DNA of 64,000 nucleotides, taken from NCBI GenBank assembly GCA_964470815.1, contig CAYYEH010000005.1:6073-70072 (forward strand). The letters run 5' to 3'. The stretch comes from an uncultured Rikenella sp. (GTDB lineage: Bacteria; Bacteroidota; Bacteroidia; Bacteroidales; VadinHA17). The notes below the pieces were generated by a model. The model ran no database searches. It was not told where the DNA came from and was given only the letters and a program-made list of their open reading frames with translations. Both the position numbers and the translations under genes were made by a program. Below are positions 22,204-60,345 of the stretch, piece after piece (within the stretch, counting starts at the first letter, position 1; each line of letters begins with the position of its first letter).

Positions 22204-22626
22204 ATGAAAAAAACAGATAAGGGGATAAAGTACTTCAGGGATGGTTACAGCTGTTCCCAGTCGGTACTGATGGCATTTACCGGAGAGAGCGGTGATTCGG
22301 CCAGGGTGGCGGCCGCATTTGGTGGCGGAATGGGAAGGATGCAGAAGACCTGCGGGGCCGTGACAGGGGCATATCTGTGGTTCGGGATGGCATACGGGGC
22401 ACCCGGATTGCCGGAAGAGAGTGACAAGACAAGGGTATATGGCAGGGTAAAGGAGTTCAACAGGATATTCACCGAACGAAATGGTACCGATATCTGCTCC
22501 GAACTTCTTGGCGAAGACCTTAATGACCCTGAGGGAAAAAAGAATATAGAAACCCGGGGGCTCACGCAGAAAGTATGCGAAAAATGCATACGGGATGCAA
22601 TTCAAATCATCGAATCTCTTGAATAG
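22204..22626 (+). CDS. C_GCAxxG_C_C family redox-type protein
   Basis: YSCSQSVL, TCGAVTGAYL, and the C-terminal CEKCIRDA, at ~140 aa. Confidence 0.8.
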   Translation: MKKTDKGIKYFRDGYSCSQSVLMAFTGESGDSARVAAAFGGGMGRMQKTCGAVTGAYLWFGMAYGAPGLPEESDKTRVYGRVKEFNRIFTERNGTDICSELLGEDLNDPEGKKNIETRGLTQKVCEKCIRDAIQIIESLE

Positions 22627-22629
22627 TCA

Positions 22630-23532
22630 ATGCACAGGGTTGTAATAACCGGTGGCACCGGCCTGATAGGCTCACGCCTGAGCACACTCCTTGCCGCTGA
22701 CGGTTGGGAGGTTGTGCATCTTACCCGCGGAGAAACAAAAAAGGAGAAGTACGGGTCATTCAGATGGGATCCCGGGAGCGGCTACTGTGATGTCAATGCA
22801 TTCCGCGAGGGAGATGCCATTGTTCACCTGGCTGCATCAAATATCGGACAGGGGAGATGGACTGAAGCACGGAAGAAGGAGATCATCCGCAGCCGAACCA
22901 TCAGCGGTGATCTCATCTACAGGATGACCATAGGGTTTGGCATAACTCCATCTGTATTCATAACTGCTTCAGGAGTAAATTACTACGGGTCAGGGATTTC
23001 GGAACATGCCTTTACGGAGAATGATCCGCCGGCAAAAGACTTCCTCGGAGAGACTTGCCGTTTATGGGAAGCAGCTTCCGACCCCTTCAGTGAGGCAGGT
23101 GTAAGGGTGGTTAAGCTGCGTACGGCGGTGGTGATGGCACAGTCAGGATCTGCGTTGAACAGGATGACTGCTCCTGCCATGGCCGGACTGATAGTCAGGC
23201 TCTCACCGGGCAACCAGTATTTTCCGTGGATTCACATTGACGACCTCTGCGGAATATATCACAGGGCACTATCAGACAGCACATTAACTGGTCCGTACAA
23301 TGCCGTGGCACCGCATCATGTGACTCATGACCAGCTGATGGGTGAGGTGGCCCGCCTCAAGGGGCTGCCCGTATTCCTCCCCCATGTGCCGGTGTGGCTG
23401 CTCAGGGTGGTACTGGGCGAAATGTCGGTGGTACTCACAAGGGGCAGCCGCATCTCCTCAGACCGTATTTCAGCAACGGGGTTCCGCTTCAGGTACCCTG
23501 ATATATCATCTGCTCTCAGGTCCTGCCTGTAA
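22630..23532 (+). CDS. TIGR01777-type NAD-dependent epimerase/dehydratase family protein (DUF1731 C-terminus)
   Basis: VITGGTGLIGSRL Rossmann motif, 300 aa, with the SSDRISATGFRFRYP C-terminal signature. Confidence 0.8.
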   Translation: MHRVVITGGTGLIGSRLSTLLAADGWEVVHLTRGETKKEKYGSFRWDPGSGYCDVNAFREGDAIVHLAASNIGQGRWTEARKKEIIRSRTISGDLIYRMTIGFGITPSVFITASGVNYYGSGISEHAFTENDPPAKDFLGETCRLWEAASDPFSEAGVRVVKLRTAVVMAQSGSALNRMTAPAMAGLIVRLSPGNQYFPWIHIDDLCGIYHRALSDSTLTGPYNAVAPHHVTHDQLMGEVARLKGLPVFLPHVPVWLLRVVLGEMSVVLTRGSRISSDRISATGFRFRYPDISSALRSCL

Positions 23533-23594
23533 GAGACATAGTCAGCCCTGAAGGGCCTTGTCAGAGAGGGTAGGATTCACCGGCTTTAACAGCA

Positions 23595-24929
23595 CTACAT
23601 CCCTCCTATCTGCATTTCAGCCACCCTGAAGGTGGGTGCGGCAAATGACCGGTTCATGTCAATGTCATTGCCCATCATGTCAATTCCGTTGAGGATGGCA
23701 TCGCCGCTTCCCGCGATTGTCAGTCCATCAACCGGATAGAGAATCTCCCCCTTTTCGATCCAGAACCCTGATGCGCCGCCGCTAAAGTTGCCGCTGACGG
23801 CGTCTATGCCATACCCGGTAACCCCGCTGAGAAGCAGTCCCCTGTCAGTGGCAGCGATGATCTCACTGCGGCTCTGCTTTCCTGTTTCAAGTGAAAGATG
23901 GTGTGTGCCGATGCCGGGCAGTGAGGTGTAGCCGTTTCTGGCGGCGTTGCCTGTGCTGACGGTTCCCGCCCTGCGGGCGGCAATAGTATTGTACACGAAC
24001 CCGCTGACGACTCCCTTATCAACCAGGATTCGTCTCTGTGTAGGAACACCCTCTCCGTCAAACGGGGCTGCGCCCATGGAGCGTGCCCTGGTGCCGTCGT
24101 CAATGATGGTCAGCAGTGGTGAAGCAAACTGTTTACCCATCGAATGGGCCAGGAAGCTGGCACCCTGAATCACCCTTTCGCCATTGAGGGCTGTTATGAC
24201 ACCGCGCAACAATGACCCGGCAACATCGGGGTCAAAGATCACTGAGGCTTTCTGCGTCTTCACCATTCGCGGATCAAGCATCTCCCAGGCTTTGCGAGCC
24301 GCTTTAGCAGCTATCTGGTCCGGCGGTGTGAGGTCACCGAAGAAACGGCGTGTGCTGTATTCACCTCCTGTCTTCTTCTGCTCTCCCTTCTCAGCCACCA
24401 CACTCACACCAAGAGAGCATCCGGATGCCTTGTAGCTGGCTGCTCTGCCTGACGAGCTGGCAATAAATACTTCAAAAACACTTTCACCGTAGGATGAACC
24501 AGAACTCTTGGTTATCCTGCCGTCACTCATCGCCATTTTTTCGAGCTCCAGGGCCATGGCTATCTTCCGGTCAAGGGCTATCCCCGCGATTTCGGGGTCA
24601 AAAAGATCCTGCACGGCGGTTTCTCCGATCAGTTCCGGCAGAACATTGCTCTCATCCGGGGTGGTGAGCCTGGCGAACTTAACCGCCATGGCAATAGTGT
24701 CGTCCAGGGCTTTCATCTCCAGGCTGTTGCTGTAGCTGAAGCCAAGCGATCCTCCGGCGATGACACGTATTCCCACTCCTGCTGAATCGGCCTCTTCAAT
24801 GGTTTCGATCTCACCGTTAAGGATGTTAACCGACAGGTTTCGTCCGGCAGATATGTATATTTCAGCTGCATCTGCCCCTGCTTTGAGGGCTTTGGATACA
24901 AGTTTCTCTGCAAGTGATAGATAATTCAT
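23595..24929 (-). CDS. pmbA: PmbA/TldE family metalloprotease subunit (no signal peptide)
   Basis: 444 aa with a TldD/PmbA fold (GVGIRVIAGGSLGFSYSN...; C-terminal GNFSGGASGFWIEKGE). The N-terminus MNYLSLAEKLVSKALKAG has no export signal. Confidence 0.85.
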   Translation of the reverse strand: MNYLSLAEKLVSKALKAGADAAEIYISAGRNLSVNILNGEIETIEEADSAGVGIRVIAGGSLGFSYSNSLEMKALDDTIAMAVKFARLTTPDESNVLPELIGETAVQDLFDPEIAGIALDRKIAMALELEKMAMSDGRITKSSGSSYGESVFEVFIASSSGRAASYKASGCSLGVSVVAEKGEQKKTGGEYSTRRFFGDLTPPDQIAAKAARKAWEMLDPRMVKTQKASVIFDPDVAGSLLRGVITALNGERVIQGASFLAHSMGKQFASPLLTIIDDGTRARSMGAAPFDGEGVPTQRRILVDKGVVSGFVYNTIAARRAGTVSTGNAARNGYTSLPGIGTHHLSLETGKQSRSEIIAATDRGLLLSGVTGYGIDAVSGNFSGGASGFWIEKGEILYPVDGLTIAGSGDAILNGIDMMGNDIDMNRSFAAPTFRVAEMQIGGM

Positions 24930-24953
24930 ATCATTGATTGTTAATGATTCACA

Positions 24954-26486
24954 CTAAGCTTTGCTGCCACCCACGTTAATTCCCCTTATTCTTACCGTTG
25001 GCTGCCCTGCGGTAACTTCTGCGCTCTGGCCCTTGCCACATATGCCCGGACCGAATGCAAGATCGTTTCCAACTGCATCTATGTTGGAGATCACATCCAT
25101 GCAGGACCCTATGAGTGTGGCTCCCCTTACCGGGACAGTTTTCTTCCCGTTTTCAATCAGGTAAGCCTCACGGCATGTGAAATTGAACATACCGGTAACC
25201 GGATTGACGCTGCCGCCGCTGAGGCTCTGGACATAGATTCCCTTTTTGGTGGAAGCCAGGATTTCTGCAGGGTCATCATTGCCCCGGGCAATGAATGTAT
25301 TTGTCATCCTGGGGATGGGGATATACCTGAAGTTCTCCCGGCGTCCGTTCCCGGTCCGTTTCATTCCAAGCTGCCTGGCACTGAGTATATCGGTCATATA
25401 ACCGTTGAGTACTCCGTTTTCTATCAGCACATTGCGTTGTGCCGGAGTTCCCTCGTCGTCATGATTGATTGTTCCACGGTAATTGGGCAGGGTGCCGTCA
25501 TCAATCATCGTAAAGCAGTCGCTTGCAACTTTTTGTCCTACTTTTCCGGTGAATGCACCGATTCCCTTTGAAATGTTATCAGCCTCAAGAGGATGCCCCA
25601 CGGCCTCATGTACCAGGACGCCGCCCCAGCCATTCTGCATCACCACATCCATTATGCCGGCCGGTGCCTCCTGGGCCGAGAGCATGGCGATGGCCTCACG
25701 TGAGGCATTCTGTGCCACCTCCTCAGGAGTCACCTGTGCAAACATCTCGAACCCGCTGTGCATGCTGAGCCGTTCACGCGCCATATGCCTGGCCTTGCCG
25801 TCGGATGACATAGCCTGTACAATGAAGAAGAGAAGTGGCAGCTCATCGCGGAGATAGAGTCCTTCACTGTTTGCAATGACTCGACCCCTTACTTCGTCAT
25901 AGTAATCTATCATGGCCATTTTTATCCTCGGGTCATAGGCAAGTGCTGCCTGATCTGCCCTTCTTATCATCTCGATGCGCTGTTCATCGGCAATCTCTCC
26001 AAGAGGCATTTCAACAGTCACAAACGATTTGTAGTCTGCTTCGGCGAGTCCGGCGATTGTAGCGACTGCTCCGCCTGAAGCCACGTATGCGGCCACCTCG
26101 GCGGCTCGCATCAGCCTCTCTTCGGATACCACATCAGTGTAGGCATACCCGGTTTTATTTCCGCTGATAACCCTGACACCGGCACCCTGGCTGATACCGT
26201 AAAGGCCGCTCCTGAATTTTGACTCCTCCATGACAATCTGTTTCGAGACACGGTTCTCGATATAAACCTCGGAGAAGTCGCCGCCTTTCTCAAGCGCTTT
26301 CTTCAGCACCCGGGAGATCATATCCCTGTCAGTGTCAAGTGCTGTCGCTGCAGCTGCATTACCGCCGCATGAGGTGAGCTGTGAAAGGAGCGCCGGCGTC
26401 ATGGCAACAGCCAGGCCACCCTTCGCCGTCAGCCCCAGAAATCGCCTGCGGGGGATATCTCGAACGGAAAATTGCTGTAATCTCAT
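24954..26486 (-). CDS. tldD: TldD family metalloprotease with twin-arginine (Tat) signal and possible lipobox
   Basis: The N-terminus IPRRRFLGLTAKGGLAVAMTPALLSQLTSCGG carries an RRxFL Tat motif plus LTSC. The catalytic HEAVGHPLE motif is present. Confidence 0.85.
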   Translation of the reverse strand: MRLQQFSVRDIPRRRFLGLTAKGGLAVAMTPALLSQLTSCGGNAAAATALDTDRDMISRVLKKALEKGGDFSEVYIENRVSKQIVMEESKFRSGLYGISQGAGVRVISGNKTGYAYTDVVSEERLMRAAEVAAYVASGGAVATIAGLAEADYKSFVTVEMPLGEIADEQRIEMIRRADQAALAYDPRIKMAMIDYYDEVRGRVIANSEGLYLRDELPLLFFIVQAMSSDGKARHMARERLSMHSGFEMFAQVTPEEVAQNASREAIAMLSAQEAPAGIMDVVMQNGWGGVLVHEAVGHPLEADNISKGIGAFTGKVGQKVASDCFTMIDDGTLPNYRGTINHDDEGTPAQRNVLIENGVLNGYMTDILSARQLGMKRTGNGRRENFRYIPIPRMTNTFIARGNDDPAEILASTKKGIYVQSLSGGSVNPVTGMFNFTCREAYLIENGKKTVPVRGATLIGSCMDVISNIDAVGNDLAFGPGICGKGQSAEVTAGQPTVRIRGINVGGSKA

Positions 26487-26525
26487 AATGGATCCTCCAA
26501 CTTGATTGAATTGACAATTTATTGA

Positions 26526-28424
26526 TTATCTGATAGTAAATTCCTTTTCAGGGAGTATTCCCCCTCTTGTGGTTATTACGGTAGCCCTGCCTTTCAGTTC
26601 GCCCCCGCCATAAACCCGTATGATGAAATGAGCCTCGGCTGTGGCACCGCCGGAGGTATAACCCACTGAGGCTGATATATACTCAGGCTCCCTGGCCTCC
26701 TCTTCAAAAAACATCATGCTGCCTCGCCTGGGGGCCGGTGGCGCCGGTTCGATGATACGGTAGTGTGGCATATCCCCGCTCCTGGTTTCAAATTTTATCC
26801 TGACCTGATCAGGCCTGACGATCTTGACAAGATGGGCCTGGCTGAGAGCAGTGGGCAGCTTGCCTGCATTCCTGAACCTGATGGTGAGGTCATAATCAGT
26901 TGAGTCACCACGGTGCCTCTTTATGCGCTTTACAGAATACTCTTCCCACTCAAGCCTGGGAAGGTGTTTTATAAGCTCCATGTTGAACAGGGCCTGGTTG
27001 GAAGCCCACTTTTCAAGATGGGCGGGAGGGGGATTCTGACTGAAAAATTTCGGGTGAAATCCCCCGGCCTCAACGCTGTCATGAACGGGATGGCTTACCG
27101 CTTTCCACTCATGGAATCCCTCTCCGCCATTTTCCTCATCATCCCAGGCCAGCATATCAATCTGGTCCTTGTCGCCGTCACCGTCATAATCCTTGTACCG
27201 GCCTCCGTTCCAGAGCTCGTCTCCATACCATATCGCACCGTAGTACCAGTACCCGAAATCGGGTCCGTGGCCGAACAGTGGCTGTCCGCTTCCGTAATCA
27301 TTGTATACGTCGCCGGCTCTCTCATAACCGGTTATCTTCCCGGCAAGGTCATCAAAGTAAATGTACCACTTCAGGTCTTCCGGGTACATTCTCTCCTCTG
27401 AGGGTGATGTTGAAGGGGGGCGCAGATGCATCGGAACGGTGGTGTCCATCGAGTTGACAACATATATGTTCGGGTGTGTCATCAGGAATGTAAACACAGC
27501 CCTGGTCTCCGGCTCGCTGAGGGGGTAGGCTCCGGCGCCCCTCTGGGTGAAGCCCCTGCCTGTCAGTTCACGCTCCGGCCTCCAGTTTTCAGGGTAGTTG
27601 CGGTGCAGGTCAAGGCCACCTATCCCATCCTCGTTGATACGGCCGTCACCGTCATTGTCTATTCCCTCGGAAGATGTGGCATAGATCCCTTCACCCCGGG
27701 GGACCCTTTTCATTATCCGTCGTGACGGGTCTGCCGGGTCGGGGATCAGGGTGCCGTTTTTCCTGTCAGGCCACCGTAATGTAAGTATTATGCCATCACC
27801 GTCAATATCTTCAGGCGGATCTTCGTCAAAAAGACCGTCGGAGTCATTGTCATCAGGCCTGACAGTACTGCGGTTGCTCTGGGCTGTATTGAGGTACAGC
27901 TCATGGCCGTCAGGATTATTGACCGGTCTGAGGTAAACGGTGAAGTGGTCAAGAAGGTCTGTAATTGCCGGATCGGTGCCGTAACCTTCAATAAGGTGCC
28001 TGGCCAGCCACAGGACAGATTCCGCGCCGGTTATCTCGCCGCTGTGCCTGTTCCCCTCAAAAAATGCGGCCGGCTTGTCAGTATCTGACCCGTTTTTGCC
28101 GCTGGTGAGGGTCATCTGCATTATTGGCCTTCCTTCATAGCTTCGGGCAATCTCATAAAGAGAAACAATCTCCGGATGCTCCCCGGCCCATCTCTCCATC
28201 CAGTAACAGATTACGCTGTATGAGTGGTACCTGTCAAAAGTAAGGGTATCACCGGGCAAATACTCCACACACGGGTGATTTACACGCGGGAAGAAACTCA
28301 CTCCGTGCCTGGTGCCGCCAACGGTGAAGAGAGATGAATCCGGTGCTGTTGCATTTTGAGCTGATAGACATTGTGAAACAGCTATGAATAAAGCTGCAAG
28401 GAATGCTCCGGCGATTCTTTTCAT
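26526..28424 (-). CDS. Secreted M14 family zinc carboxypeptidase with Asp-rich Ca-binding-like inserts
   Basis: Sec signal MKRIAGAFLAALFIAVSQCLSAQ and zinc motif NRHSGEITG. Asp-rich inserts are DDNDSDGLFDEDPPEDIDGDG, IDNDGDGRINEDGIGGLD and KDYDGDGDKDQID. Confidence 0.8.
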   Translation of the reverse strand: MKRIAGAFLAALFIAVSQCLSAQNATAPDSSLFTVGGTRHGVSFFPRVNHPCVEYLPGDTLTFDRYHSYSVICYWMERWAGEHPEIVSLYEIARSYEGRPIMQMTLTSGKNGSDTDKPAAFFEGNRHSGEITGAESVLWLARHLIEGYGTDPAITDLLDHFTVYLRPVNNPDGHELYLNTAQSNRSTVRPDDNDSDGLFDEDPPEDIDGDGIILTLRWPDRKNGTLIPDPADPSRRIMKRVPRGEGIYATSSEGIDNDGDGRINEDGIGGLDLHRNYPENWRPERELTGRGFTQRGAGAYPLSEPETRAVFTFLMTHPNIYVVNSMDTTVPMHLRPPSTSPSEERMYPEDLKWYIYFDDLAGKITGYERAGDVYNDYGSGQPLFGHGPDFGYWYYGAIWYGDELWNGGRYKDYDGDGDKDQIDMLAWDDEENGGEGFHEWKAVSHPVHDSVEAGGFHPKFFSQNPPPAHLEKWASNQALFNMELIKHLPRLEWEEYSVKRIKRHRGDSTDYDLTIRFRNAGKLPTALSQAHLVKIVRPDQVRIKFETRSGDMPHYRIIEPAPPAPRRGSMMFFEEEAREPEYISASVGYTSGGATAEAHFIIRVYGGGELKGRATVITTRGGILPEKEFTIR

Positions 28425-28481
28425 GGCAGAAATGGTAATAATTAAAAAAACGGAATCAAGTTAATGATTTTGGCTTAATAA

Positions 28482-29189
28482 TCAGCCCCGCCTGGAAATC
28501 ACTTCAAGTTTATTCATATCGGTAATCTCAATCGTGCGGCCGGTTGTTTTAATGATACCGTCACGCCTGAATTCGGAGAATGTGCGTATCACGTTGGCGG
28601 AACTCATACTGATCAGGTCAGCTATCTCCTTCCTTGAGACAGGGAGTTCAAAGATCCTGGAATGGTATATTTCGCCGGCGAAATAGAGCAGTACAAAGGC
28701 AATCCTGCCGGCCAGGTTCCTTTTCCTGATCTCCAGGCTCAGGCTGATAATGTTTTCGGATGTCTTCGAGAGTGCAGCAATGAGCTTCAGGGCAAAACTG
28801 CCATTGTTAAGTATCAGGTTTTTGATCAGGTCGATTTTTATACAGCATACCACTGAATCTTCAAGGGCAGAAAGTGAATACCTGTATTTCTCCTCGTGGA
28901 ATGCATTAATGTTGCTGACAAATTCATAGGGCCTTGTGATGGTAATTATCTGCTCATCTCCCTCTCCGGTTACCCTGTAGAGTTTCACCAGGCCTGTCTT
29001 CAGGTACTTGAAGTCACGGATCGGTTCTCCCTCGCCGTGAATGACTTCACCCTTTGAATATGAGATCTCATCCTTTGTATCACATACCTGCCTGATATCC
29101 TCCTCATCCAGGTTTGAAAACACCAGGTCTCTCAGTTCACATGAGAGACAGCTGCATTTTCTTTTCTGAATATTTGTTACGACAGCCAT
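28482..29189 (-). CDS. Crp/Fnr family transcriptional regulator with N-terminal Cys cluster
   Basis: cNMP-binding-like beta-roll plus the C-terminal HTH RKEIADLISMSSANVIRTFSEFRRDG. The N-terminus has C12-x-C14-x2-C17. Confidence 0.85.
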   Translation of the reverse strand: MAVVTNIQKRKCSCLSCELRDLVFSNLDEEDIRQVCDTKDEISYSKGEVIHGEGEPIRDFKYLKTGLVKLYRVTGEGDEQIITITRPYEFVSNINAFHEEKYRYSLSALEDSVVCCIKIDLIKNLILNNGSFALKLIAALSKTSENIISLSLEIRKRNLAGRIAFVLLYFAGEIYHSRIFELPVSRKEIADLISMSSANVIRTFSEFRRDGIIKTTGRTIEITDMNKLEVISRRG

Positions 29190-29258
29190 GAATCTTACAA
29201 AATTAGAACAATCCGCGGAATTATTCGTTCACCTTTCATATTTTTGACAATAGCGACA

Positions 29259-30059
29259 ATGGACCGGGAAAAAATGTTTTACGGCACGGATTATCATATT
29301 CATACAAGGTACAGTGACGGGAAGAGGGATCCGGAGGCATATATTGATGCTGCACTCAGGCTCGGGCTGAAGGAGATCGGTTTTTCAGACCATCTGAATC
29401 CGTCAGGAGGTGACACCGACTGGTGCATGGATCATTCCAGGCTTCCGGCCTATGCAGATCACATTTTGAGGTTAAGGAGGGAAAACAAGGATATTGCCAT
29501 CAGGCTCGGACTCGAAATAGATTATCTGCCCGGAAAGGAAAAGGAGACAGAACGGATAATCAATTCATTCCCTTTTGACTTCATAATCGGATCTGTTCAT
29601 TACCTGGGGCAGGAGACTGTAGACCTGGGACCCGGGTTCTACATCGGCAAGGACATTGATCTCATTTACGAAAACTATTTCAACCTGGTATGTGAAGCTG
29701 CATCCACCGGCTTCTTTGATATAATGGGGCATCCTGACCTTGTGCGAATCCACCGCTTCAGGCCGGAGGCAGACATCACCCATCTCTACAGCATGATGGC
29801 TTCTGCGTTCGAAATATATGATGTCGCCTTTGAGCTCAACACCAACGGCCGGAACAAGCCATTGCAGGACTTTTACCCTGACAGGCAGTATCTTTCACTT
29901 TTTGCTGAACACGGGGTGCCGGTTTGTGTCAATTCAGACGCACATTTTCCCGAAAGGGTCGGGCAGTATTTCAATGACGCATATGATCTACTCAAGAGGG
30001 CGGGATACAGGGAGATGGCTGCTTTTTCGGGCCGTGAAAGGTATCTGATCCCGTTCTGA
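29259..30059 (+). CDS. HisJ-family histidinol-phosphatase-like PHP domain protein
   Basis: DYHIHTRYSDG, GFSDH, GSVHY, MGHPD, and NSDAH metal-ligand motifs. ATG 29259 is preferred over TTG 29244. Confidence 0.8.
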   Translation: MDREKMFYGTDYHIHTRYSDGKRDPEAYIDAALRLGLKEIGFSDHLNPSGGDTDWCMDHSRLPAYADHILRLRRENKDIAIRLGLEIDYLPGKEKETERIINSFPFDFIIGSVHYLGQETVDLGPGFYIGKDIDLIYENYFNLVCEAASTGFFDIMGHPDLVRIHRFRPEADITHLYSMMASAFEIYDVAFELNTNGRNKPLQDFYPDRQYLSLFAEHGVPVCVNSDAHFPERVGQYFNDAYDLLKRAGYREMAAFSGRERYLIPF

Positions 30060-49398: not shown

Positions 49399-51273
49399 TT
49401 ATCTGCCGAGATACATTATAAGAATTGAAACATCAGACGATGACACCCCGCTGATGCGTGAAGCCTGGCCAATGGTTGCAGGCTTGATTTTTGACAGCTT
49501 CTGCCTCCCTTCGGTTGATATTGAAGTCAGTTCGTCATAAACAATCTCGTCCGGTATCTTCAGATTTTCCAGTCGCTTGATCTTTTCAGCTATGCCTCTT
49601 TCTCTATCCAGGTAACCAGAATACTTGATCCTGATTTCAGCAGTTTCAATAATCTCAGTCTTTCTTTCGGAACTGAAGCAATCCAGTTTATCGCTTCCGG
49701 GAATTATACTTAGCAGCTCCTCAAGCTCTATCTGTGGTCTTGCTGCAATACTTACAGCCTTAATCTTCTGGGTTATTTCCGAGGTGCCCTTCTCTTTAAG
49801 AAACCTGTTAATTTCTGTTGGTGAAATACTCCGACTTTTAAGAAAGGCTATAATCTCCTCTGCCATCCTGTACTTTTCTTCCAGTCTTATAACTCTCTCC
49901 TTCGTGGCCGTGCCAAGATCCCTGGCCCGCGGTGTCAGTCTTTCATCCGCATTGTCCTGCCGAAGCAGAATTCTGTACTCAGCCCTGGAAGTAAACATCC
50001 TGTATGGTTCATCCACACCTTTTGTAACCAGGTCATCGATGAGTACACCTATATAAGCCTCATCACGTTTGAGTATAAACGGATGTCCTCCCCTTATCCT
50101 GAGCACTGCGTTAATGCCGGCCAGGAGCCCCTGGGCTGCTGCCTCCTCATAACCGGTAGTTCCGTTAATCTGTCCTGCAAAGAAGAGTCCTGAAACCCTC
50201 TTCGTCTCAAGCGAGTGTTTAAGTTGTGTCGGCTGAAAAAAATCATACTCGATGGCATATCCGGGGCGATAGATAACAACATTTTCAAGCCCTCTGATTT
50301 CCCTTAAAGCACCTAACTGCGATTCGAGTTTAAGACTGCTGGCAAACCCATTGATGTAGTACTCATTAGTATCCCATCCTTCCGGCTCCAGGAAAAGCTG
50401 ATGAGATTCCTTTCCTGCAAAGGTAACGATTTTGTCTTCCACACTGGGGCAGTACCGCGGACCCCTGCCCTTTATCCTTCCGGTAAAGAGCGGAGAAAAC
50501 TCGAGTCCTTTCCTGAGTACCTCGTGTGCTCTCTCATTTGTGTGGGTTATATAACAGCTTCTTTCGTCCTGTATGTCTATCCTGTCGTGAAGATATGAAA
50601 AGCATCGCCCGTCTCCGTCACCTTTCTGTTCGGTCATGGCTGCAAAACCGATACTTCTACCGTCCACTCTAGCGCTTGTACCAGTCTTCAGCCTTTCGAC
50701 CTCAAAACCCAGATCCCTCAGCTGATCGCTTATTCCCCTGGAAGCCGGATCCCCTGACCTTCCGCCGGCCATAGTATTGAATCCGACATGCATAAGGCCG
50801 TTCAGAAATGTTCCGTTTGTAAGTATAACAGCATCCGCCCTGAATTCTGTTCCGAATGTTGTCCGTACTCCCCTTACGGAACCCTGTTCTATTATGAGTT
50901 CACTAGCCTGCTCCTGCCATATCCCAAGGTTCGTGGTTTCTTCCAGGACCTTTCTCCATTCTCTGCTGAACAGCATCCGGTCACATTGAGCCCGTGGACT
51001 CCACATTGCAGGTCCTTTGCTTCGGTTCAGCATTCTGAACTGGATCATCGTCCGGTCAGTGATTAAGCCAGATACTCCGCCCAGCGCATCTATCTCTCTG
51101 ATTATCTGCCCCTTGGCTATGCCTCCCATAGCCGGATTACAGGACATCTGGGCAAGTTTTGTCATATCCATCGTGACAAGGAGTGTCTTCGCTCCCATTA
51201 CGGCAGCAATATGCGCAGCCTCACAGCCGGCATGTCCCCCGCCAACCACAATTATATCATACCTGAAGTTCAT
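49399..51273 (-). CDS. mnmG: tRNA uridine 5-carboxymethylaminomethyl modification enzyme
   Basis: [16 protein letters not shown] and full-length GidA homology over 624 aa. Confidence 0.95.
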
Positions 51274-51692
51274 TCGGCATATGATAAGGCCAGATACATT
51301 TCTTCCAACTCAGACATTTTCTTCTTCTCCCCTTCTGTTCTGTCATCATAGCCACATAAATGGAGGAAACCATGGAAAATAACCCTTCTCATTTCAGCAG
51401 ATGGCGAAACTCCATACTCACCTGAATTTTCTCTTACCCTGGTTTCACTTATGTATATTTCACCGTTAACGGTGTTTCCCTTGTTATAATTGAAAGTTAT
51501 TATATCAGTATAATAATCATGTCCCAGGAATTCAGAGTTTATCTCATAAACCTTTTCATCGCTGGTTATAATAACATCAATCTTTCCGGCTTTCATTCCG
51601 GCATCTGAAATAATTCTTCCTATTACCTTTTTGATTTTCCTGCTGTCGCGCAGTCTGAAATTTTCAATATCGTAATGGAAGCCTACTTTCAA
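51270..51692 (-). CDS. ybeY: rRNA maturation RNase YbeY
   Basis: The [11 protein letters not shown] zinc motif. It has a 4-nt overlap with mnmG. Confidence 0.9.
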
Positions 51693-51696
51693 TTTT

Positions 51697-52089
51697 TCAG
51701 TATTTGAATCTCATTTTTACCTGGTTTCCGGAGTCATTGTACTCTATTACATCCGCCAGGCTCCTCATAATAAACACTCCGCGTCCGTGAAGGTTCTCAA
51801 TATTTTCCGGATCCGTAGGGTCCGGCAGGTTATTATATTCAAAGCCATCACCCTCATCCGTAACTGTTACTTCGAACAAATTCCCGTCTGAAGTGAAATT
51901 CACAGTGACCATTTTTTCAGCATTACCTTTGTTTCCGTGAAGAATTGCGTTGTTGACCGCCTCAACAGTAGATATCAGTATCTTTCCGTACACCTCATCA
52001 GAGATGCCAAGTTTCTTCGATAACGTATCTACCAGCGTCTCTACAACCCGCAGTTTTTCAATGTCTGAATTTATAGTAATGCTTTCCAT
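51697..52089 (-). CDS. Small GHKL ATPase, RsbW/SpoIIAB-like anti-sigma-factor-type kinase
   Basis: 130 aa with VEAVNNAILHGN (N-box), VTDEGDGF (G1) and GRGVFIM (G2-like). Confidence 0.7.
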   Translation of the reverse strand: MESITINSDIEKLRVVETLVDTLSKKLGISDEVYGKILISTVEAVNNAILHGNKGNAEKMVTVNFTSDGNLFEVTVTDEGDGFEYNNLPDPTDPENIENLHGRGVFIMRSLADVIEYNDSGNQVKMRFKY

Positions 52090-52146
52090 TCCTGATTCCC
52101 TATCACTTTTATAACTGACAGGGTATTTATTTGTTGCAAAATTTAG

Positions 52147-53328
52147 TCATTTTTTTATAAGCCACTGCTCCGGGTCAAGCTTTTTCTTTTCCTCATATAC
52201 CATAAACTTCAGGACAGATTTTCCACCATCTCCGTTATCCATGTAAACATCTCCGATTTCCTGGCCCAGGGTTACGCTGTCACCTGCCTTTAGCTTCACG
52301 TTGACCAGGTTCTGATAAACCGTAAGGTATTTGCCATGTCTGATGATGACAGCCATATTTGCACCTGAAATTGCAAAGACGCGAACCACTTCCCCCTTGA
52401 AAACCGATCTTGCTTTAGTTTGTCCGACTGAAGTTATTTCTATGCCTATATTATCTTCGGTAACATTCTTTAGCACAGGATGCGGTTGCAGGCCGAAATG
52501 ACCGGTTATGATTCCTTTGTCAACAGGCCATGGAAGTCTTCCCTTATTCTCACCAAAAGAATCCCCGATCACCTTCATCTCCCTGCTCATGGGAACAGTT
52601 TCGCTTTTCTTTCTCTCCTCCTCAATGAGTTTCTCAATCTCCTTTTCAATCTGTCGTGCGATTCTCCTCTTTTCGTCAAGTTCCTGTTTCAACTGCTTTT
52701 CCTTTCTGCTGAGTGTGGTTACAAGCCTTTCCTTCCGGTTCTGTTCCTGGCTCAGCATCTGCTTCTGCCTTACCTCCTTGTTTTTAAGGTCGTTTACATT
52801 TCTCCTGTCCTTCTCAAGCCTTTCCTTCGTGCTCCGGAGTTCATTGTACAAAGTCTCAATTGTTTCTGTCTCCTTTCTCCTGTATTTGGCAACCTGTTGT
52901 ATATATTTAAGCCTCTTGTAACCCTGGTTAAAGTCAGAAGAGGAGAGGATAAACGCCAGCGCAGGCGTTCCCTTGGTAGCCTTGTAGGCACTAATAATTG
53001 ACCGTGCATACTCACTCTTCAGTTCATTTAGGTCCTGTTCAAGCATTTCCGTAGCCAGGCTGTTCAGGCTGATTCTGTATTCAAGGAGGCTAATCTCCTG
53101 CCCGTATTCATTAATAAGTCTCTCTCTCAGGTTCAACTTGCGGCCGATGACCCTGAGTTCATTGATGTTCTCATTTTTCTGGGTTGCTGTAGCTTTCAGC
53201 ATCCGGTCAACATATTCTATCTCCTGCAGGTTTTTTCTCCTCATCTCCTCCAGCTCTGCCCGTGATTGTCCTTCCAGGGCACATGCGAAAAACAATGCAA
53301 AAACCAATATGAGATAGCCTTTTTTCAC
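52147..53328 (-). CDS. EnvC-like murein hydrolase activator (coiled coil plus degenerate LytM/M23 domain)
   Basis: Signal peptide, then ~230 aa of heptad-rich E/K/R sequence. The C-terminal LytM fold has NIGIEI in place of HxxxD and VLKFMVYE in place of HxH, so the catalytic ligands are lost as in EnvC/NlpD. The start is a GTG at 53328. Confidence 0.8.
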   Translation of the reverse strand: MKKGYLILVFALFFACALEGQSRAELEEMRRKNLQEIEYVDRMLKATATQKNENINELRVIGRKLNLRERLINEYGQEISLLEYRISLNSLATEMLEQDLNELKSEYARSIISAYKATKGTPALAFILSSSDFNQGYKRLKYIQQVAKYRRKETETIETLYNELRSTKERLEKDRRNVNDLKNKEVRQKQMLSQEQNRKERLVTTLSRKEKQLKQELDEKRRIARQIEKEIEKLIEEERKKSETVPMSREMKVIGDSFGENKGRLPWPVDKGIITGHFGLQPHPVLKNVTEDNIGIEITSVGQTKARSVFKGEVVRVFAISGANMAVIIRHGKYLTVYQNLVNVKLKAGDSVTLGQEIGDVYMDNGDGGKSVLKFMVYEEKKKLDPEQWLIKK

Positions 53329-54089
53329 AATGATTCCCTCCTGTATGACGGCAGGTTGAATTCGATATCAGAATCGTACCCGAATATCAAATCATCAATA
53401 TTTAGTTTCACGTGAAACATTCTTTCCCTCTCATTCATTTCTATTACCGTCGGATACCTTATTCCACCGTTTGTGCCAAATTCACTAAATGTAATATAAA
53501 TCTCATGTCCTGAATATATTGCATCAATTGTTTCATTGCAAATCTTCATTTGGTCAATACAGATTGAAATATCCCTTCTGAAGCTATCATCTCCGGCTTC
53601 GACAATAAGCCGTCTGTTTTCGGTGTAAGTGTAATTACGGATATTTCCGGCAGGCATATCTCCGAAAATTACCTTCATGAAGTCTTCCGGCAGGCCGTTC
53701 TTCTTCAGTATTGCATCCTTCTTTCCAACATAAACAGTTTTGTTGAATCTGTCAATGGCTGCGATGTCATTTCCGACCATTAAAAGCCTGACAAGCTCAA
53801 TACCCAATGGTCCGCGAACGGATCCATAAAAGTCTCCGCGCCTGTTAAGCCTAGCATGCAGGCCAAACTTTCCTTCAATTTCAGTTCCCCGCAGTTCTAT
53901 TGTGCCTTTTCGTATCTCAAAGCCCTTCCCGGTAATATTATTTTCTATAACATCCGAAATGACAGCTTCATAGTTGAACCTCCCGGGTTCAGATAGTGTT
54001 TCTGTTGCCCTGCCTTTCCGAAGGGCCGAGCATCCGGCCATAACAGTCACCATAAAAAGCAGGCTGCAGTATTTTATTATTTTGTACAT
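53325..54089 (-). CDS. Lipoprotein, DUF4292-like (LolB-fold-like)
   Basis: Lipobox VMAGCS. It sits between the TPR lipoprotein and the M23 gene, the conserved Bacteroidota order as I recall it. Confidence 0.6.
   Translation of the reverse strand: MYKIIKYCSLLFMVTVMAGCSALRKGRATETLSEPGRFNYEAVISDVIENNITGKGFEIRKGTIELRGTEIEGKFGLHARLNRRGDFYGSVRGPLGIELVRLLMVGNDIAAIDRFNKTVYVGKKDAILKKNGLPEDFMKVIFGDMPAGNIRNYTYTENRRLIVEAGDDSFRRDISICIDQMKICNETIDAIYSGHEIYITFSEFGTNGGIRYPTVIEMNERERMFHVKLNIDDLIFGYDSDIEFNLPSYRRESL
53404..53419. other. parS-like ParB-binding site (15/16 to consensus), intragenic
   Basis: AGTTTCACGTGAAACA against the cross-phylum consensus TGTTTCACGTGAAACA. It contains the 14-bp perfect palindrome GTTTCACGTGAAAC and lies inside the DUF4292-like CDS. 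Confidence 0.7.
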
Positions 54090-55789
54090 CTTTTAATCTC
54101 CTCTTCCAGATATGACTTTGTTTCATCTGCTTCAAGGGCCCGATTCCAGTACAAAACCGCCTCATCGCATCTGCCAATGGCCTTCTTTATATACCCCATG
54201 TGCTCAAGCAGTTCAGGATCCTGTCCTTCACCATTCTCAAATATCCTCGACATAACACGGTGCGCTTCCCTGAACTTTCCAAGCCTGTAAAGCACCCATG
54301 CATAAGTATCTATGTACGTCGGATTGTCACCTTCAATAGCCATAACCCTCTCCGCCATTTTTAGCGCCTTCTTCAGGTCTGTATTTCCTTCCGCAAGAAA
54401 GTAGGCATAGTTGTTAAGCAGCAACGGGTCATCAGGCGTTATTGCAAGAGCTTCCTCATATATTGCATATGATCCGGAGAAATCCTTCATACGGTATTTC
54501 AGGTCACCCATCATAGAAAGAACCTGCACTTTCATCTGCTCATCATTTCCAGCCAGTATAAGTGCCTTTCGGAGTTCAGCATCAGCTACTTCATATTCTT
54601 TCAGCTCCATCGCGGCTATGGCATAATAAACCTTTCCCAGGATGCTCCTGTTGTTTTCCCTGGAATAAAGCGATGCCAGGTCATACATTTTCCGGTACTC
54701 CCTGGATTCAGCATAAAGTACCAGCAATCGCTCCTTAAACCAGAATCCCTGCTTTACTTCTTTTATTATTTCTTCATTTCTTCTGATTGCAAGCTCAGTC
54801 ATCCCTGCCCTTTCATAAACCCCTGGCCTTAGAGACATCACCTCCTCATCGCCAGGGTACTTATTTTCCAGTAGGAGAAGTGTTTCTGCCAGCGACCCTG
54901 CATTGCCCGCTATATATGCACTGTCACCGGCAAGCCTTTGTGAGATTGCTATCTTTCTTTCTCTATCAACTACATCACTTTCGAAAACCCTTTGAAGAAA
55001 AACAGATACTCCGGAATACTCCTGACGGTAAACAAGGCTCATCAGATACATAAGCTGGGTTTCAATATCATCAGGATTACTTTCAATTATCTTACGGTAT
55101 ATACTGTCACTTTTCTCCCTTTCTCCGTCTTCATAATATATATCTGCCAGCAGGGCGTTATACCTTGTTTCCTGAGGATACTGGTCAATAAGCCTTATGG
55201 TTCTTTCAGCTGCTTCTTTAAAATTGCCCTTGTTTATAATCCCATATATCATCATAAGTGACATATCAGGAGTGAGTGTTCCTTCACTGTCAAGTATCCG
55301 AAACAGTGAGTCGGCTTTTTCGGTTTCACCCTTTTCAGCAAAGAGACCAGCCAGGATCCCGTTTACTTCCACGGCCCGGTTGTCAGCCTTCAGTGCCCGT
55401 TGAAAATAGACAATGGCTGAATCTTTCAATTCATATTGGGTAAACAGGGATCCGCATGCCAGCTGAAACCAGTAGTTACCCGGCTCAAGCCTTGCGGCTG
55501 TTGTAGCGTACTTAAGCGATTTACCACTCATTCCGGCAGCTGAGTACATCTGTGCAAGCTCGAACCATGGCACAGCGTGGGTCTGGTCAAGCTCAATGCA
55601 CTTTTCGAACAGGGTTGCCGCCTCATTCAAATCGCCAACGTATTTCTGCCTCAGTGCCTCCGAAAGGATATAGTCATACCTGTTGTCTGTTCTCCTTTCG
55701 CTGCCTCTTTCAAACGCAGGTGAGATGATTTTCCTTGAGCATCCCGCCGCCACCAGCAGGAGCAAGAACAATATGATGCCTCTTTTCAT
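54077..55789 (-). CDS. Tetratricopeptide-repeat lipoprotein
   Basis: Lipobox VAAGCS and multiple TPR units across 570 aa. Confidence 0.8.
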
Positions 55790-56220
55790 CTTCTCCCGGA
55801 ATGTCCGAATCCTCCTTCTCCCCTGACTGTGGAGTCAATCACCTCGGTATGTACAAGTTCTGCTTTTTCATGACGGGCTACAATCATCTGTGCTATCCGG
55901 TCCCCGTCATTGACGGTAAATTCTTTCTCCGACAGGTTTATAAGAATAACTCCTATTTCGCCCCTGTAGTCAGCATCTATTGTACCGGGAGAATTAAGGA
56001 CGGTGATTCCGTGTTTGAGTGAGAGGCCGCTTCTTGGCCTCACCTGGGCCTCGTATCCCTCCGGCAACTCAATATACAGTCCTGTAGGTATCAGCCTTCG
56101 CTCCATCGGCCTGAGGGTGACCGGCCCGCCGGTGAAGGCACGCAGGTCCATACCGGCCGAATGCGCAGTTTCATATGCGGGCAGCGGATGTGATGATTTG
56201 TTTACTATCCTGATTTTCAT
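55786..56220 (-). CDS. dut: dUTP diphosphatase
   Basis: [25 protein letters not shown], and [10 protein letters not shown]. Confidence 0.95.
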
Positions 56221-59643: not shown

Positions 59644-60345
59644 ATGAAACAGCATGACTATACCATAGCATTCTGTGACAAATGCGCATTTGAAACCAGT
59701 TCAGTTTTTCGCTTCCTTACAAGGGATGAAACCGACAGGCTCAATTTCGAGAAGGATTTCAGGCGCTACAGGAGAGGTGATATACTCTACCACGAGGGTA
59801 ATCGCATAAGTGGTTTCTATTGTATCAATTCAGGCATAATCAAGGTCTTCAAAACCGGGGTTGACGGCAAGGAACAGATAATACGATTTGCAAGAAAGGG
59901 TGAAATAATTGCTTACAGGTCAGTGCTGAGCAATGAGCCGGCATGCACATCAGCCAAGGTGATAGAGGACTGCCAGGTGTGTTTCATACCCTCGGAGCTC
60001 CTTATCCAGTTTGTCAAGACCAATCCCGCATTTGCCTTTGAAGTGGTTAAACTGACGTGCCATGAGCTCGCAGAGGCAAACTCATATATTACTGATATAG
60101 CACAGAAGACGGTAAGGGAAAGGGTTGCCGAAGTGTTGCTGAGCCTGGTCAAGGACTTTGGTCTTGATGATCAGAAGTACCTTCGTATCTCGCTTACGCG
60201 TGAAGAGCTTGCAAACATTGTGGGTACCGCCACGGAATCAGTAATCCGTCTTCTTTCCGAATTCAAGAGTGACCGGCTTATTGAACTTAACGGGCGCAAG
60301 ATCAAGATTATAGATCAGAAAGGTCTTGAAAAGATAAGCTCCTGA
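59644..60345 (+). CDS. Crp/Fnr family transcriptional regulator
   Basis: cNMP-binding-like domain plus the HTH REELANIVGTATESVIRLLSEFKSD. The N-terminus has C11-x2-C14. Confidence 0.85.
   Translation: MKQHDYTIAFCDKCAFETSSVFRFLTRDETDRLNFEKDFRRYRRGDILYHEGNRISGFYCINSGIIKVFKTGVDGKEQIIRFARKGEIIAYRSVLSNEPACTSAKVIEDCQVCFIPSELLIQFVKTNPAFAFEVVKLTCHELAEANSYITDIAQKTVRERVAEVLLSLVKDFGLDDQKYLRISLTREELANIVGTATESVIRLLSEFKSDRLIELNGRKIKIIDQKGLEKISS

Follow-up and report, generated by a model that had tools for sequence, protein, structure and literature searches.

We propose that the proteins TldD and PmbA, which are encoded in a stretch of DNA of 64,000 nucleotides from an uncultured Rikenella sp. (contig CAYYEH010000005.1, positions 6,073 to 70,072 of the forward strand; this whole stretch is termed the window, and the coordinates below refer to it), make up a heterodimer that would be exported as a 'hitch-hiker' complex by the Tat (twin-arginine translocation) pathway, on the signal of TldD alone, and that would degrade oligopeptides while being lipid-anchored and facing the periplasm, within a peptide-catabolism operon. 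From the sequence evidence we put the probability of this proposal at about 0.5. The two genes are the last of a minus-strand block of four open reading frames (ORFs), in the order Crp/Fnr-family regulator, M14 zinc carboxypeptidase, TldD and PmbA, with spacers of 57, 39 and 24 nt. An original prediction, made from the letters of the sequence, had described these four same-strand genes with the same gaps and families, and it is borne out by the ORF coordinates and by the Pfam and NCBIfam profile searches, which support all four family assignments. Of the interpretation that it put on them, the export signal on TldD alone has held, while the tight coupling of the M14 enzyme, the surface location and the paired cysteines of the regulator have been weakened, as discussed below.

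The putative export signal of TldD and its partner PmbA

The evidence that carries the proposal lies at the N-terminus of TldD. The putative signal peptide takes up residues 1-40 (26367..26486, minus strand), reading MRLQQFSVRDIPRRRFLGLTAKGGLAVAMTPALLSQLTSC, where the twin-arginine (RR) motif P-R-R-R-F-L (RRRFL at residues 13-17, R13-L17, 26436-26450, minus strand), which has the RRxFL consensus, is followed by a hydrophobic region (h-region) of low hydrophobicity and then by the lipobox L37-T-S-C40 (26367-26378, minus strand), which fits the pattern [LVI][ASTVI][GAS]C at the signal end. The motif read as P-R-R-R-F-L-G, together with the weakly hydrophobic h-region, conforms to the S/T-R-R-x-F-L-K-like Tat pattern. 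The best 12-residue Kyte-Doolittle mean of the h-region is 1.65, to be compared with about 2.6-3.1 for the membrane segments elsewhere in the window, and no other ORF of the window makes a credible RR-signal candidate.

For comparison, 80 orthologous TldD loci on one-genome-per-species contigs were collected, giving 81 sequences with that of the window. The RR motif, in the form D-[IM]-P-R-R-[RK]-F-[LIF], is present in all 81, and the lipobox Cys is present in 79. For codon positions 1, 2 and 3 the nucleotide entropy over the signal region is 0.68, 0.29 and 1.56, respectively, and since the third positions are free, the region is translated and under purifying selection; on this sequence evidence the RR signal region of TldD is not a product of chance. 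The original prediction had placed a Tat signal with a possible lipobox on TldD and had made the claim depend on conservation of the RR motif among orthologs, and the sequence comparison agrees with it on both points. It had left the location as either the periplasm or the surface. In Bacteroidota, lipoproteins have an acidic motif for surface export. Because 68 of 79 TldD orthologs have no acidic residue among the six positions after the lipobox Cys, a periplasm-facing orientation of the TldD complex is favoured, and the surface part of that earlier claim loses ground.

PmbA (23595..24929, minus strand, 444 aa), by contrast with TldD, has no signal. Its ATG lies about 15-30 nt past the TldD stop in most of the ~80 loci (24 nt in the window), and in the window as well as in the orthologs the open frame upstream of that ATG closes within a few codons, leaving no room for a signal peptide, which is thus excluded. 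The PmbA orthologs begin with M-[ND]-Y-..-L-.-EKLV and are signal-less at every locus with a readable start, in agreement with the earlier claim that PmbA has no signal and with the expectation that its orthologs would have none of their own. Thus, over ~80 loci a partner without its own signal is encoded beside the signal-bearing subunit, which is the arrangement that characterises a Tat hitch-hiker pair.

In other respects the two proteins look conventional. TldD, the catalytic subunit (24954..26486, minus strand, 510 aa), has the domains PF01523, PF19290 and PF19289, each over its cut-off, and scores 378 bits in the NCBIfam TldD model, under the equivalog cut-off of 513 bits; PmbA/TldE, the non-catalytic partner, also has all three PmbA_TldD domains and scores 225 bits in the NCBIfam PmbA model. 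TldD is aligned with E. coli TldD (PDB 5NJ5 chain A) over residues 58-508 with E=3.5e-102, its motifs HEAVGHPLE (residues 293-301; predicted as intact, and found so) and GICGK (481-485) aligning with the E. coli HEAVGH and GVCGK, and PmbA is aligned with E. coli PmbA (5nj5_B) with E=1.5e-57. Neither HExxH nor HExxxH occurs in the 444 residues of PmbA. Because of the 5NJ5 matches, the HEAVGH and GxCGK motifs kept in TldD and the HExxH-type motif missing in PmbA, the window pair is, by sequence, an ordinary catalytic plus non-catalytic M103 pair, and its homology with 5NJ5 and the adjacent partner gene point to an active TldD-PmbA heterodimer. In E. coli TldD and TldE are both needed, and the heterodimer is more stable than the homodimers (PMC10885120, PMC5810440).

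The same arrangement is found at a larger evolutionary distance. A HMMER search was made of 1.84 billion cluster representatives, from which the best 150 TldD relatives were taken, 140 of them full-length. Among these 140 nearest representatives, 21 (~15%) are extended at the N-terminus by 40 residues or more that include an RR motif, an extension which ends in a lipobox in some of them and not in others; for example, P0124, P0125 and P0126 are distant TldDs with RRxFL-type N-termini and no lipobox at all. The recurrence of the RRxFL N-termini without the lipobox suggests that the conserved feature is Tat and not the lipobox. Eight distant Tat-TldD lineages, with 38-47% identity to the window TldD, were inspected, and in each of them an ordinary PmbA lies directly downstream. 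In the five lineages with DNA at hand (L081, L082, L083, L164 and L165) this adjacent PmbA starts straight at the mature domain, and in the other three it has the ordinary length of 451-458 aa; no counter-example to a signal-less PmbA beside a Tat-TldD was met among the eight. The other neighbours of these distant pairs have nothing in common among themselves. We consider the odds even that there is a widespread class of TldD/E, exported pre-assembled as a heterodimer on one Tat signal, often lipobox-ended, on TldD, with a shift in the role of this 'pencil-sharpener' peptidase from cytoplasmic peptide maturation to extracytoplasmic peptide breakdown. In a neighbour-joining tree of 141 TldD sequences (the 140 representatives and the window), the Tat-bearing sequences are scattered over 12 small clades apart from one another; the tree is too crude to separate repeated gain and loss from lack of resolution.

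Two side observations are added here. Peptidase genes stand beside some distant Tat-TldD/PmbA pairs (L165, 7913-9268, minus strand; the P0130 locus; L082, 4291-5799), namely DegP/HtrA-like Trypsin_2-PDZ, gingipain-like Peptidase_C25 and Peptidase_M17 genes, which is anecdotal. Moreover, the metagenome-assembled genome (MAG) JAPLDX01 has two different Tat-TldD/PmbA loci on separate contigs, L016, with M14 upstream of TldD and a contig end before any regulator position, and L029, with the regulator and without M14; this could be a real duplication or could come from mixed strains in the bin.

The M14 carboxypeptidase, the regulator and the gene order

The M14 zinc carboxypeptidase (26526..28424, minus strand, 632 aa) begins with a Sec-type signal, contains three Asp-rich inserts and ends in a beta-rich domain. 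Its N-terminus, MKRIAGAFLAALFIAVSQCLSA/QN, is of the Sec signal-peptidase-I-like type, and the Cys within that signal is not conserved in orthologs. Peptidase_M14 (PF00246) is matched with E=2e-39, covering only profile positions 3-205 of 286, and the best matches by both sequence and fold are carboxypeptidases A and T. The HxxE zinc motif H127-S-G-E130 is invariant, and carboxypeptidase A is aligned over M14 residues 59-176. The residues invariant in 33 homologs include H127, E130, R275, H333 and E403. The last three stand in motifs resembling carboxypeptidase A, in a region that lies outside the Pfam match ending at profile position 205 and where the predicted local distance difference test score (pLDDT) of the structure model is <50; they are putative counterparts of carboxypeptidase A R145, H196 and E270.

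Insert 1, DDNDSDGLFDEDPPEDIDGDG (residues 191-211; 27792..27854, minus strand), is DxDxDG-like, with D192, D194, D196, D200, E201, D202 and D206 invariant in the 33 homologs, and insert 2, DNDGDGRINEDG (residues 256-267; 27624..27659, minus strand), is likewise DxDxDG-like, with D256, D258, D260, N264, E265 and D266 invariant. Insert 3, DYDGDGDKDQID (residues 412-423; 27156..27191, minus strand), is less strict, D416 being invariant and D412, Y413, D420 and Q421 nearly so. From these patterns, binding of Ca by inserts 1 and 2 is plausible. The Sec signal and the three Asp-rich inserts had been noticed in the original prediction. Searches with Pfam and NCBIfam detected no type IX secretion system (T9SS) tail on the M14 protein, and therefore the periplasm is its default location.

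The Crp/Fnr-family regulator (28482..29189, minus strand, 235 aa; Pfam cNMP_binding and HTH_Crp_2) has five cysteines, C12, C14, C17, C36 and C115, that are invariant in 58 of 58 orthologs of 54-94% identity. C14-x2-C17 is aligned on C20-x2-C23 of FNR and C115 on C122 (Aliivibrio FNR; PDB 5cvr/9qlt), so that three of the four cluster-ligand positions of FNR (C20, C23, C29 and C122 in E. coli numbering) are matched, the position of C29 not being Cys; C12 or C36 could serve as the fourth ligand. The earlier remark that this protein is reminiscent of FNR is thereby given substance. The cysteine pattern that it had pointed to holds for C12, C14 and C17 but not for the internal CC pair, of which only one Cys is conserved, the second, C116, occurring in 12 of the 58 orthologs. 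In the FNR equivalog model the score is 61 bits against a cut-off of 228. The regulator is thus FNR-like, probably an Fe-S or thiol-based sensor, and is not an FNR ortholog. In the 57-nt spacer between the regulator and M14 there is an imperfect palindrome, AATCATTAACTTGATT (AATCA-N6-TGATT; 28454..28469, minus strand), present in close relatives only (L001-L013), which is a possible operator or attenuator. It is also noted that the window encodes a second Crp/Fnr-family regulator (59644-60345, plus strand, 233 aa; cNMP_binding and HTH_Crp_2), with a different, shorter N-terminal motif, AFCDKCAF (C-x2-C).

The cluster is flanked by genes on the opposite strand, for a PHP phosphoesterase (29244-30059, plus strand) and for a YfcH-like epimerase (22630-23532, plus strand). 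In the clade of the window a block is widely conserved in which PHP, divergently oriented, is followed by the regulator, M14, TldD, PmbA, (the opposite-strand YfcH) and PFK, and in most orthologous loci the M14-TldD spacer measures 21-60 nt. In the window this spacer of 39 nt (26487..26525, minus strand) contains the Shine-Dalgarno sequence GGAGGA at 26493-26498, 7 nt before the TldD ATG, which is kept in close relatives; there is none before PmbA. Bacteroidota are thought to use Shine-Dalgarno sequences little in general. As for the promoter, the consensus of the -7 element in Bacteroidota is TAnnTTTG. This is matched by the -7-like box TAATTTTG (29198..29205, minus strand), 8 nt upstream of the regulator ATG, which is the sole intergenic TAnnTTTG box on the minus strand within 23400-29350, and around which GGTGAACGAAT...GATTGTTCTAAATTTG is conserved among close relatives. 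With spacers this short, and with no intergenic -7-like box other than the one upstream of the regulator, co-transcription of the cluster is plausible. A scan for sigma-70 promoters and terminators, which is not suited to Bacteroidota, gave counts at shuffle level. Among the relatives, the M14-TldD spacer of L046 has a CAACCTG tandem repeat, and several others (L023, L040 and L047) have GC-rich palindromic elements in spacers that are otherwise short.

Of 64 loci, 57 have the regulator upstream of M14, and at loci that lack M14 it immediately precedes TldD. In some relatives further genes are inserted in the block. One of these, situated between the regulator and M14 (L012, 3388-5922; L014, 3389-5923; L020, 5367-7895, here in place of M14; L096; L122), codes for a metalloprotease of ~844 aa that is M6-like (immune inhibitor A) and carries a T9SS sorting domain at its C-terminus. 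The other, which follows M14 in eight relatives, encodes a sodium:dicarboxylate/amino-acid symporter (SDF family, PF00375, E=4e-124), either between M14 and TldD (L067, 6678-7901; L068; L072; L073; L115; L161) or, in L151 and L156, whose contigs stop short of any TldD, immediately after M14. These insertions fit a chain of extracellular proteolysis, periplasmic trimming and amino-acid uptake and point to nutritional proteolysis. Farther out among the Bacteroidales (Draconibacterium-like, Prolixibacteraceae and others) the TldD-PmbA pair occurs by itself, its neighbours being genes for fumarate reductase, cation efflux or Mur-ligase-like proteins.

The surroundings of the cluster are as follows. 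The genomes nearest to the window are uncultured Bacteroidales MAGs, and the NCBI contig JBAMKU010002864.1 has an M14 that is 99% identical, with the same gene order and gene calls, including the 510-aa TldD; an exact-sequence look-up of the window TldD returned no record. The second gene downstream of the cluster (22204-22626, plus strand), which is syntenic in close relatives, is that of a small C_GCAxxG_C_C 'putative redox-active' protein. In an Rfam scan of the whole 64 kb no family reaches its gathering score, and no tRNA, rRNA or riboswitch was detected. Over ~6 kb of minus-strand genes (window 50000-56000) the GC skew is strongly negative, at about -0.20.

Proposed mechanism and competing explanations

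From the gene order, the motifs, the conservation of those motifs and the signal-less PmbA, we infer the following mechanism. TldD and PmbA would fold in the cytoplasm, acquire metal there and associate as the hollow TldD/E heterodimer, and the Tat translocase would then export this complex on the TldD signal alone ("hitch-hiking"). Export of heterodimers by Tat on the signal of one subunit is, according to PMC10924467, an established mode. Cys40 would be lipidated and the signal cleaved, the complex would stay anchored, facing the periplasm, and there it would act on unfolded oligopeptides, shortening them in the way that is known of the cytoplasmic TldD/E of E. coli. The Sec-exported periplasmic M14 enzyme, probably co-transcribed in this genome, would trim C-termini. 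With the FNR-like, probably Fe-S-binding, regulator upstream, these enzymes would make up an anaerobiosis- or redox-tuned periplasmic peptide-catabolism operon.

Several points weigh against this proposal. The curated Tat model TIGR01409 gives the TldD N-terminus 8.8 bits (E=2.2) against a trusted cut-off of 16.7, a sub-threshold score that neither confirms nor excludes Tat. No TatA-like ORF is present in the window, and tblastn with E. coli TatA gives no match in the window and 163 loci (1.95 Mb), which are small genome pieces and hence uninformative; likewise no tatA or tatC was found in the window or in the 1.95 Mb of loci, which are genome fragments only. Formation of the heterodimer is a prediction from homology only. 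On the side of the regulator, its recognition helix reads ANVIR, where that of FNR reads ETISR, and it has no E--SR motif, and neither an FNR box (TTGAT-N4-ATCAA) nor a clear shared operator is found in the intergenic regions of the cluster. On the side of the M14 enzyme, the AlphaFold2 model made with 33 homologs has a mean pLDDT of 58, with the inserts <50, and a Foldseek search with it brings back no more than the carboxypeptidase A/T core; the model is no reliable guide to the inserts or to the C-terminal domain.

The gene order gives further such points. In 10 of 80 TldD loci there is no M14 beside TldD, the other block genes being kept, and in 6 of these 10 the order is directly regulator-TldD-PmbA. 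Conversely, when M14 was used as the query against metagenomes and the 50 loci whose downstream sequence reaches 1.2 kb or more were counted, TldD-PmbA follows M14 in 28, and in the other 22 the block is kept but TldD-PmbA is missing. The housekeeping neighbours PHP and PFK are equally syntenic, and conserved order alone is thus weak evidence of shared function. In addition, the symporter and M6 insertions occur in few sub-clades and may represent only one or two events. By these counts the coupling of M14 to TldD-PmbA is facultative, and M14 and the regulator are lineage-specific additions rather than obligate partners. The coupling claimed in the original prediction therefore stands as regards the common strand and the short spacers but not as an obligate link, and its expectation that the genes would be co-conserved holds for the block as a whole, which is widely kept, but not for M14 and TldD-PmbA, which have each been lost independently.

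The foremost of the alternatives, though an unlikely one, is that export is limited to TldD, by itself or as a homodimer, while PmbA stays in the cytoplasm, with a signal-less TldD paralog or in a separate role, the adjacency of the two genes being a matter of ancestry. This would accord with the lack of a signal on PmbA and with the finding that TldE homologs crystallise as homodimers (PMC5810440). It is hard to reconcile with a PmbA that has no catalytic motif, given that E. coli TldD needs TldE for activity, and with the tight TldD-PmbA spacing in most of the ~80 loci and in the eight distant lineages, which would be difficult to explain for proteins of different compartments. Ranking next, and improbable in our judgement, is the view that the four genes are neighbours by inherited synteny only, the regulator, M14 and TldD/PmbA being unrelated in function and M14 perhaps acting on cell-wall peptides. 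The independent losses and the equal synteny of PHP and PFK speak for it, as does the label 'murein tripeptide amidase MpaA' that the automatic JGI (Joint Genome Institute) pipeline gives to the M14 homolog P0383. Yet the genes share a strand, their spacers measure 21-60 nt in most lineages, no promoter-like box lies between them, the regulator stays with whichever peptidase gene remains, and it is again peptidase and transporter genes that have been inserted inside the unit.

A little less probable again is that TldD begins with an ordinary Sec/Lol lipoprotein signal, or with a membrane anchor, in which the Arg-Arg is incidental; TldD would then be translocated unfolded and PmbA could not follow. 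The conserved lipobox and the low TIGR01409 score would be expected from such a signal, but not its length of 40 residues with an invariant RRxF[LIF] before an h-region that is weakly hydrophobic and contains charges, nor the RRxFL-type N-termini on the distant TldDs devoid of a lipobox. The least probable explanation of all, in our view, makes the module a periplasmic protease dedicated to the maturation of an exported precursor, be it that of a ribosomal peptide, a toxin or a cofactor, of the kind of microcin B17, microcin C-like compounds or pyrroloquinoline quinone (PQQ). Its appeal is that every characterised function of TldD/E is the processing of a specific peptide (PMC10885120). Against it, no precursor or modification gene is present, as had been noted at the outset, the intergenic spaces of the cluster being 24-57 nt; the neighbours of the pair (fumarate reductase, Mur-ligase-like, cation-efflux, M17, C25 and HtrA genes) differ completely between lineages; and the genes inserted in relatives are those of a secreted protease and an amino-acid/dicarboxylate symporter. 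The export of TldD-PmbA as a Tat hitch-hiker heterodimer for oligopeptide degradation is thus the explanation that we prefer.

Implications and comparison with known systems

TldD/E is present in most bacteria, and its established roles are only cytoplasmic, in the maturation of microcin B17 and related peptides and in the degradation of CcdA. Automatic databases may already flag Tat signals on TldDs of the present kind. Full-text searches, from whose coverage subscription-only papers including a 2022 TldD/TldE review in Microbiol. Res. were absent, found no literature linking TldD/PmbA/U62 with Tat, hitch-hiking or periplasmic location, and the structural paper on TldD/E makes no mention of signals (PMC5810440). 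Both the protease family and the export principle are known; their combination and the implied compartment appear to be undescribed, in keeping with what had been supposed at first. If our proposal is true, the conserved exported form would give the TldD/E family a second cellular compartment and would suggest a plain physiological role, namely that proteolytic anaerobes complete the breakdown of oligopeptides in their periplasm. Tat hitch-hiking, too, would reach further than the cofactor-rich redox enzymes and include a hydrolase, with a protease as the example. One signal and two proteins make a simple, testable model pair. Moreover, in genome annotation, a signal-less PmbA beside a Tat-TldD should not be taken as cytoplasmic.

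Comparing the pair with E. coli TldD/TldE (MEROPS M103, PDB 5NJ5), it is seen that both have three-domain subunits, with HExxxH and a distal Cys in TldD only and an inert partner, and by homology the activity expected of the window pair is the sequence-independent shortening of unfolded peptides in a hollow shell. The differences are that the window TldD has a 40-residue twin-arginine lipoprotein signal, where E. coli TldD has none, that the predicted site of action is the periplasm rather than the cytoplasm, and that the window tldD and pmbA genes are adjacent and tightly spaced, those of E. coli, tldD and tldE/pmbA, being unlinked. Within the Bacteroidota, a solved homolog of PmbA/TldE is Bacteroides thetaiotaomicron BT3649, a 'putative modulator of DNA gyrase' (PDB 1VPB), which is of the same family and length as the window PmbA (E=4.8e-46).

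For the two other genes the reference systems are FNR and the carboxypeptidases A and T. With the [4Fe-4S] oxygen sensor FNR (that of E. coli, and structures 5CVR/5E44 from Aliivibrio fischeri), the regulator has the Crp/Fnr fold in common, and its 'LEDSVVC' (C115) corresponds to 'LETSMVC' (C122) of FNR; unlike FNR, it has no Cys at the C29 position and has the invariant C12 and C36 instead. With bovine carboxypeptidase A and Thermoactinomyces carboxypeptidase T, the M14 enzyme shares the HxxE motif, and the N-terminal 118 residues of its catalytic domain can be superposed on theirs at 1.5-2 A, the identity being 31-36%. By contrast with both, it has ~90 residues between the halves of the catalytic domain, carrying the two DxDxDG-like loops; besides a third acidic insert it has ~140 additional residues that form a C-terminal beta domain, and it has no pro-domain.

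Finally, we compare TldD-PmbA with the known Tat hitch-hiker complexes, of which HybO-HybC (hydrogenase 2), DmsA-DmsB and PaoABC are examples in E. coli. Like these, TldD-PmbA has an RR signal on one subunit only, with the partner encoded beside it, a partner that would be exported while bound to the first. Whereas the known hitch-hikers are almost all redox enzymes with complex cofactors, TldD-PmbA would be a single-metal hydrolase with a lipobox, for which co-export is predicted from the genes.

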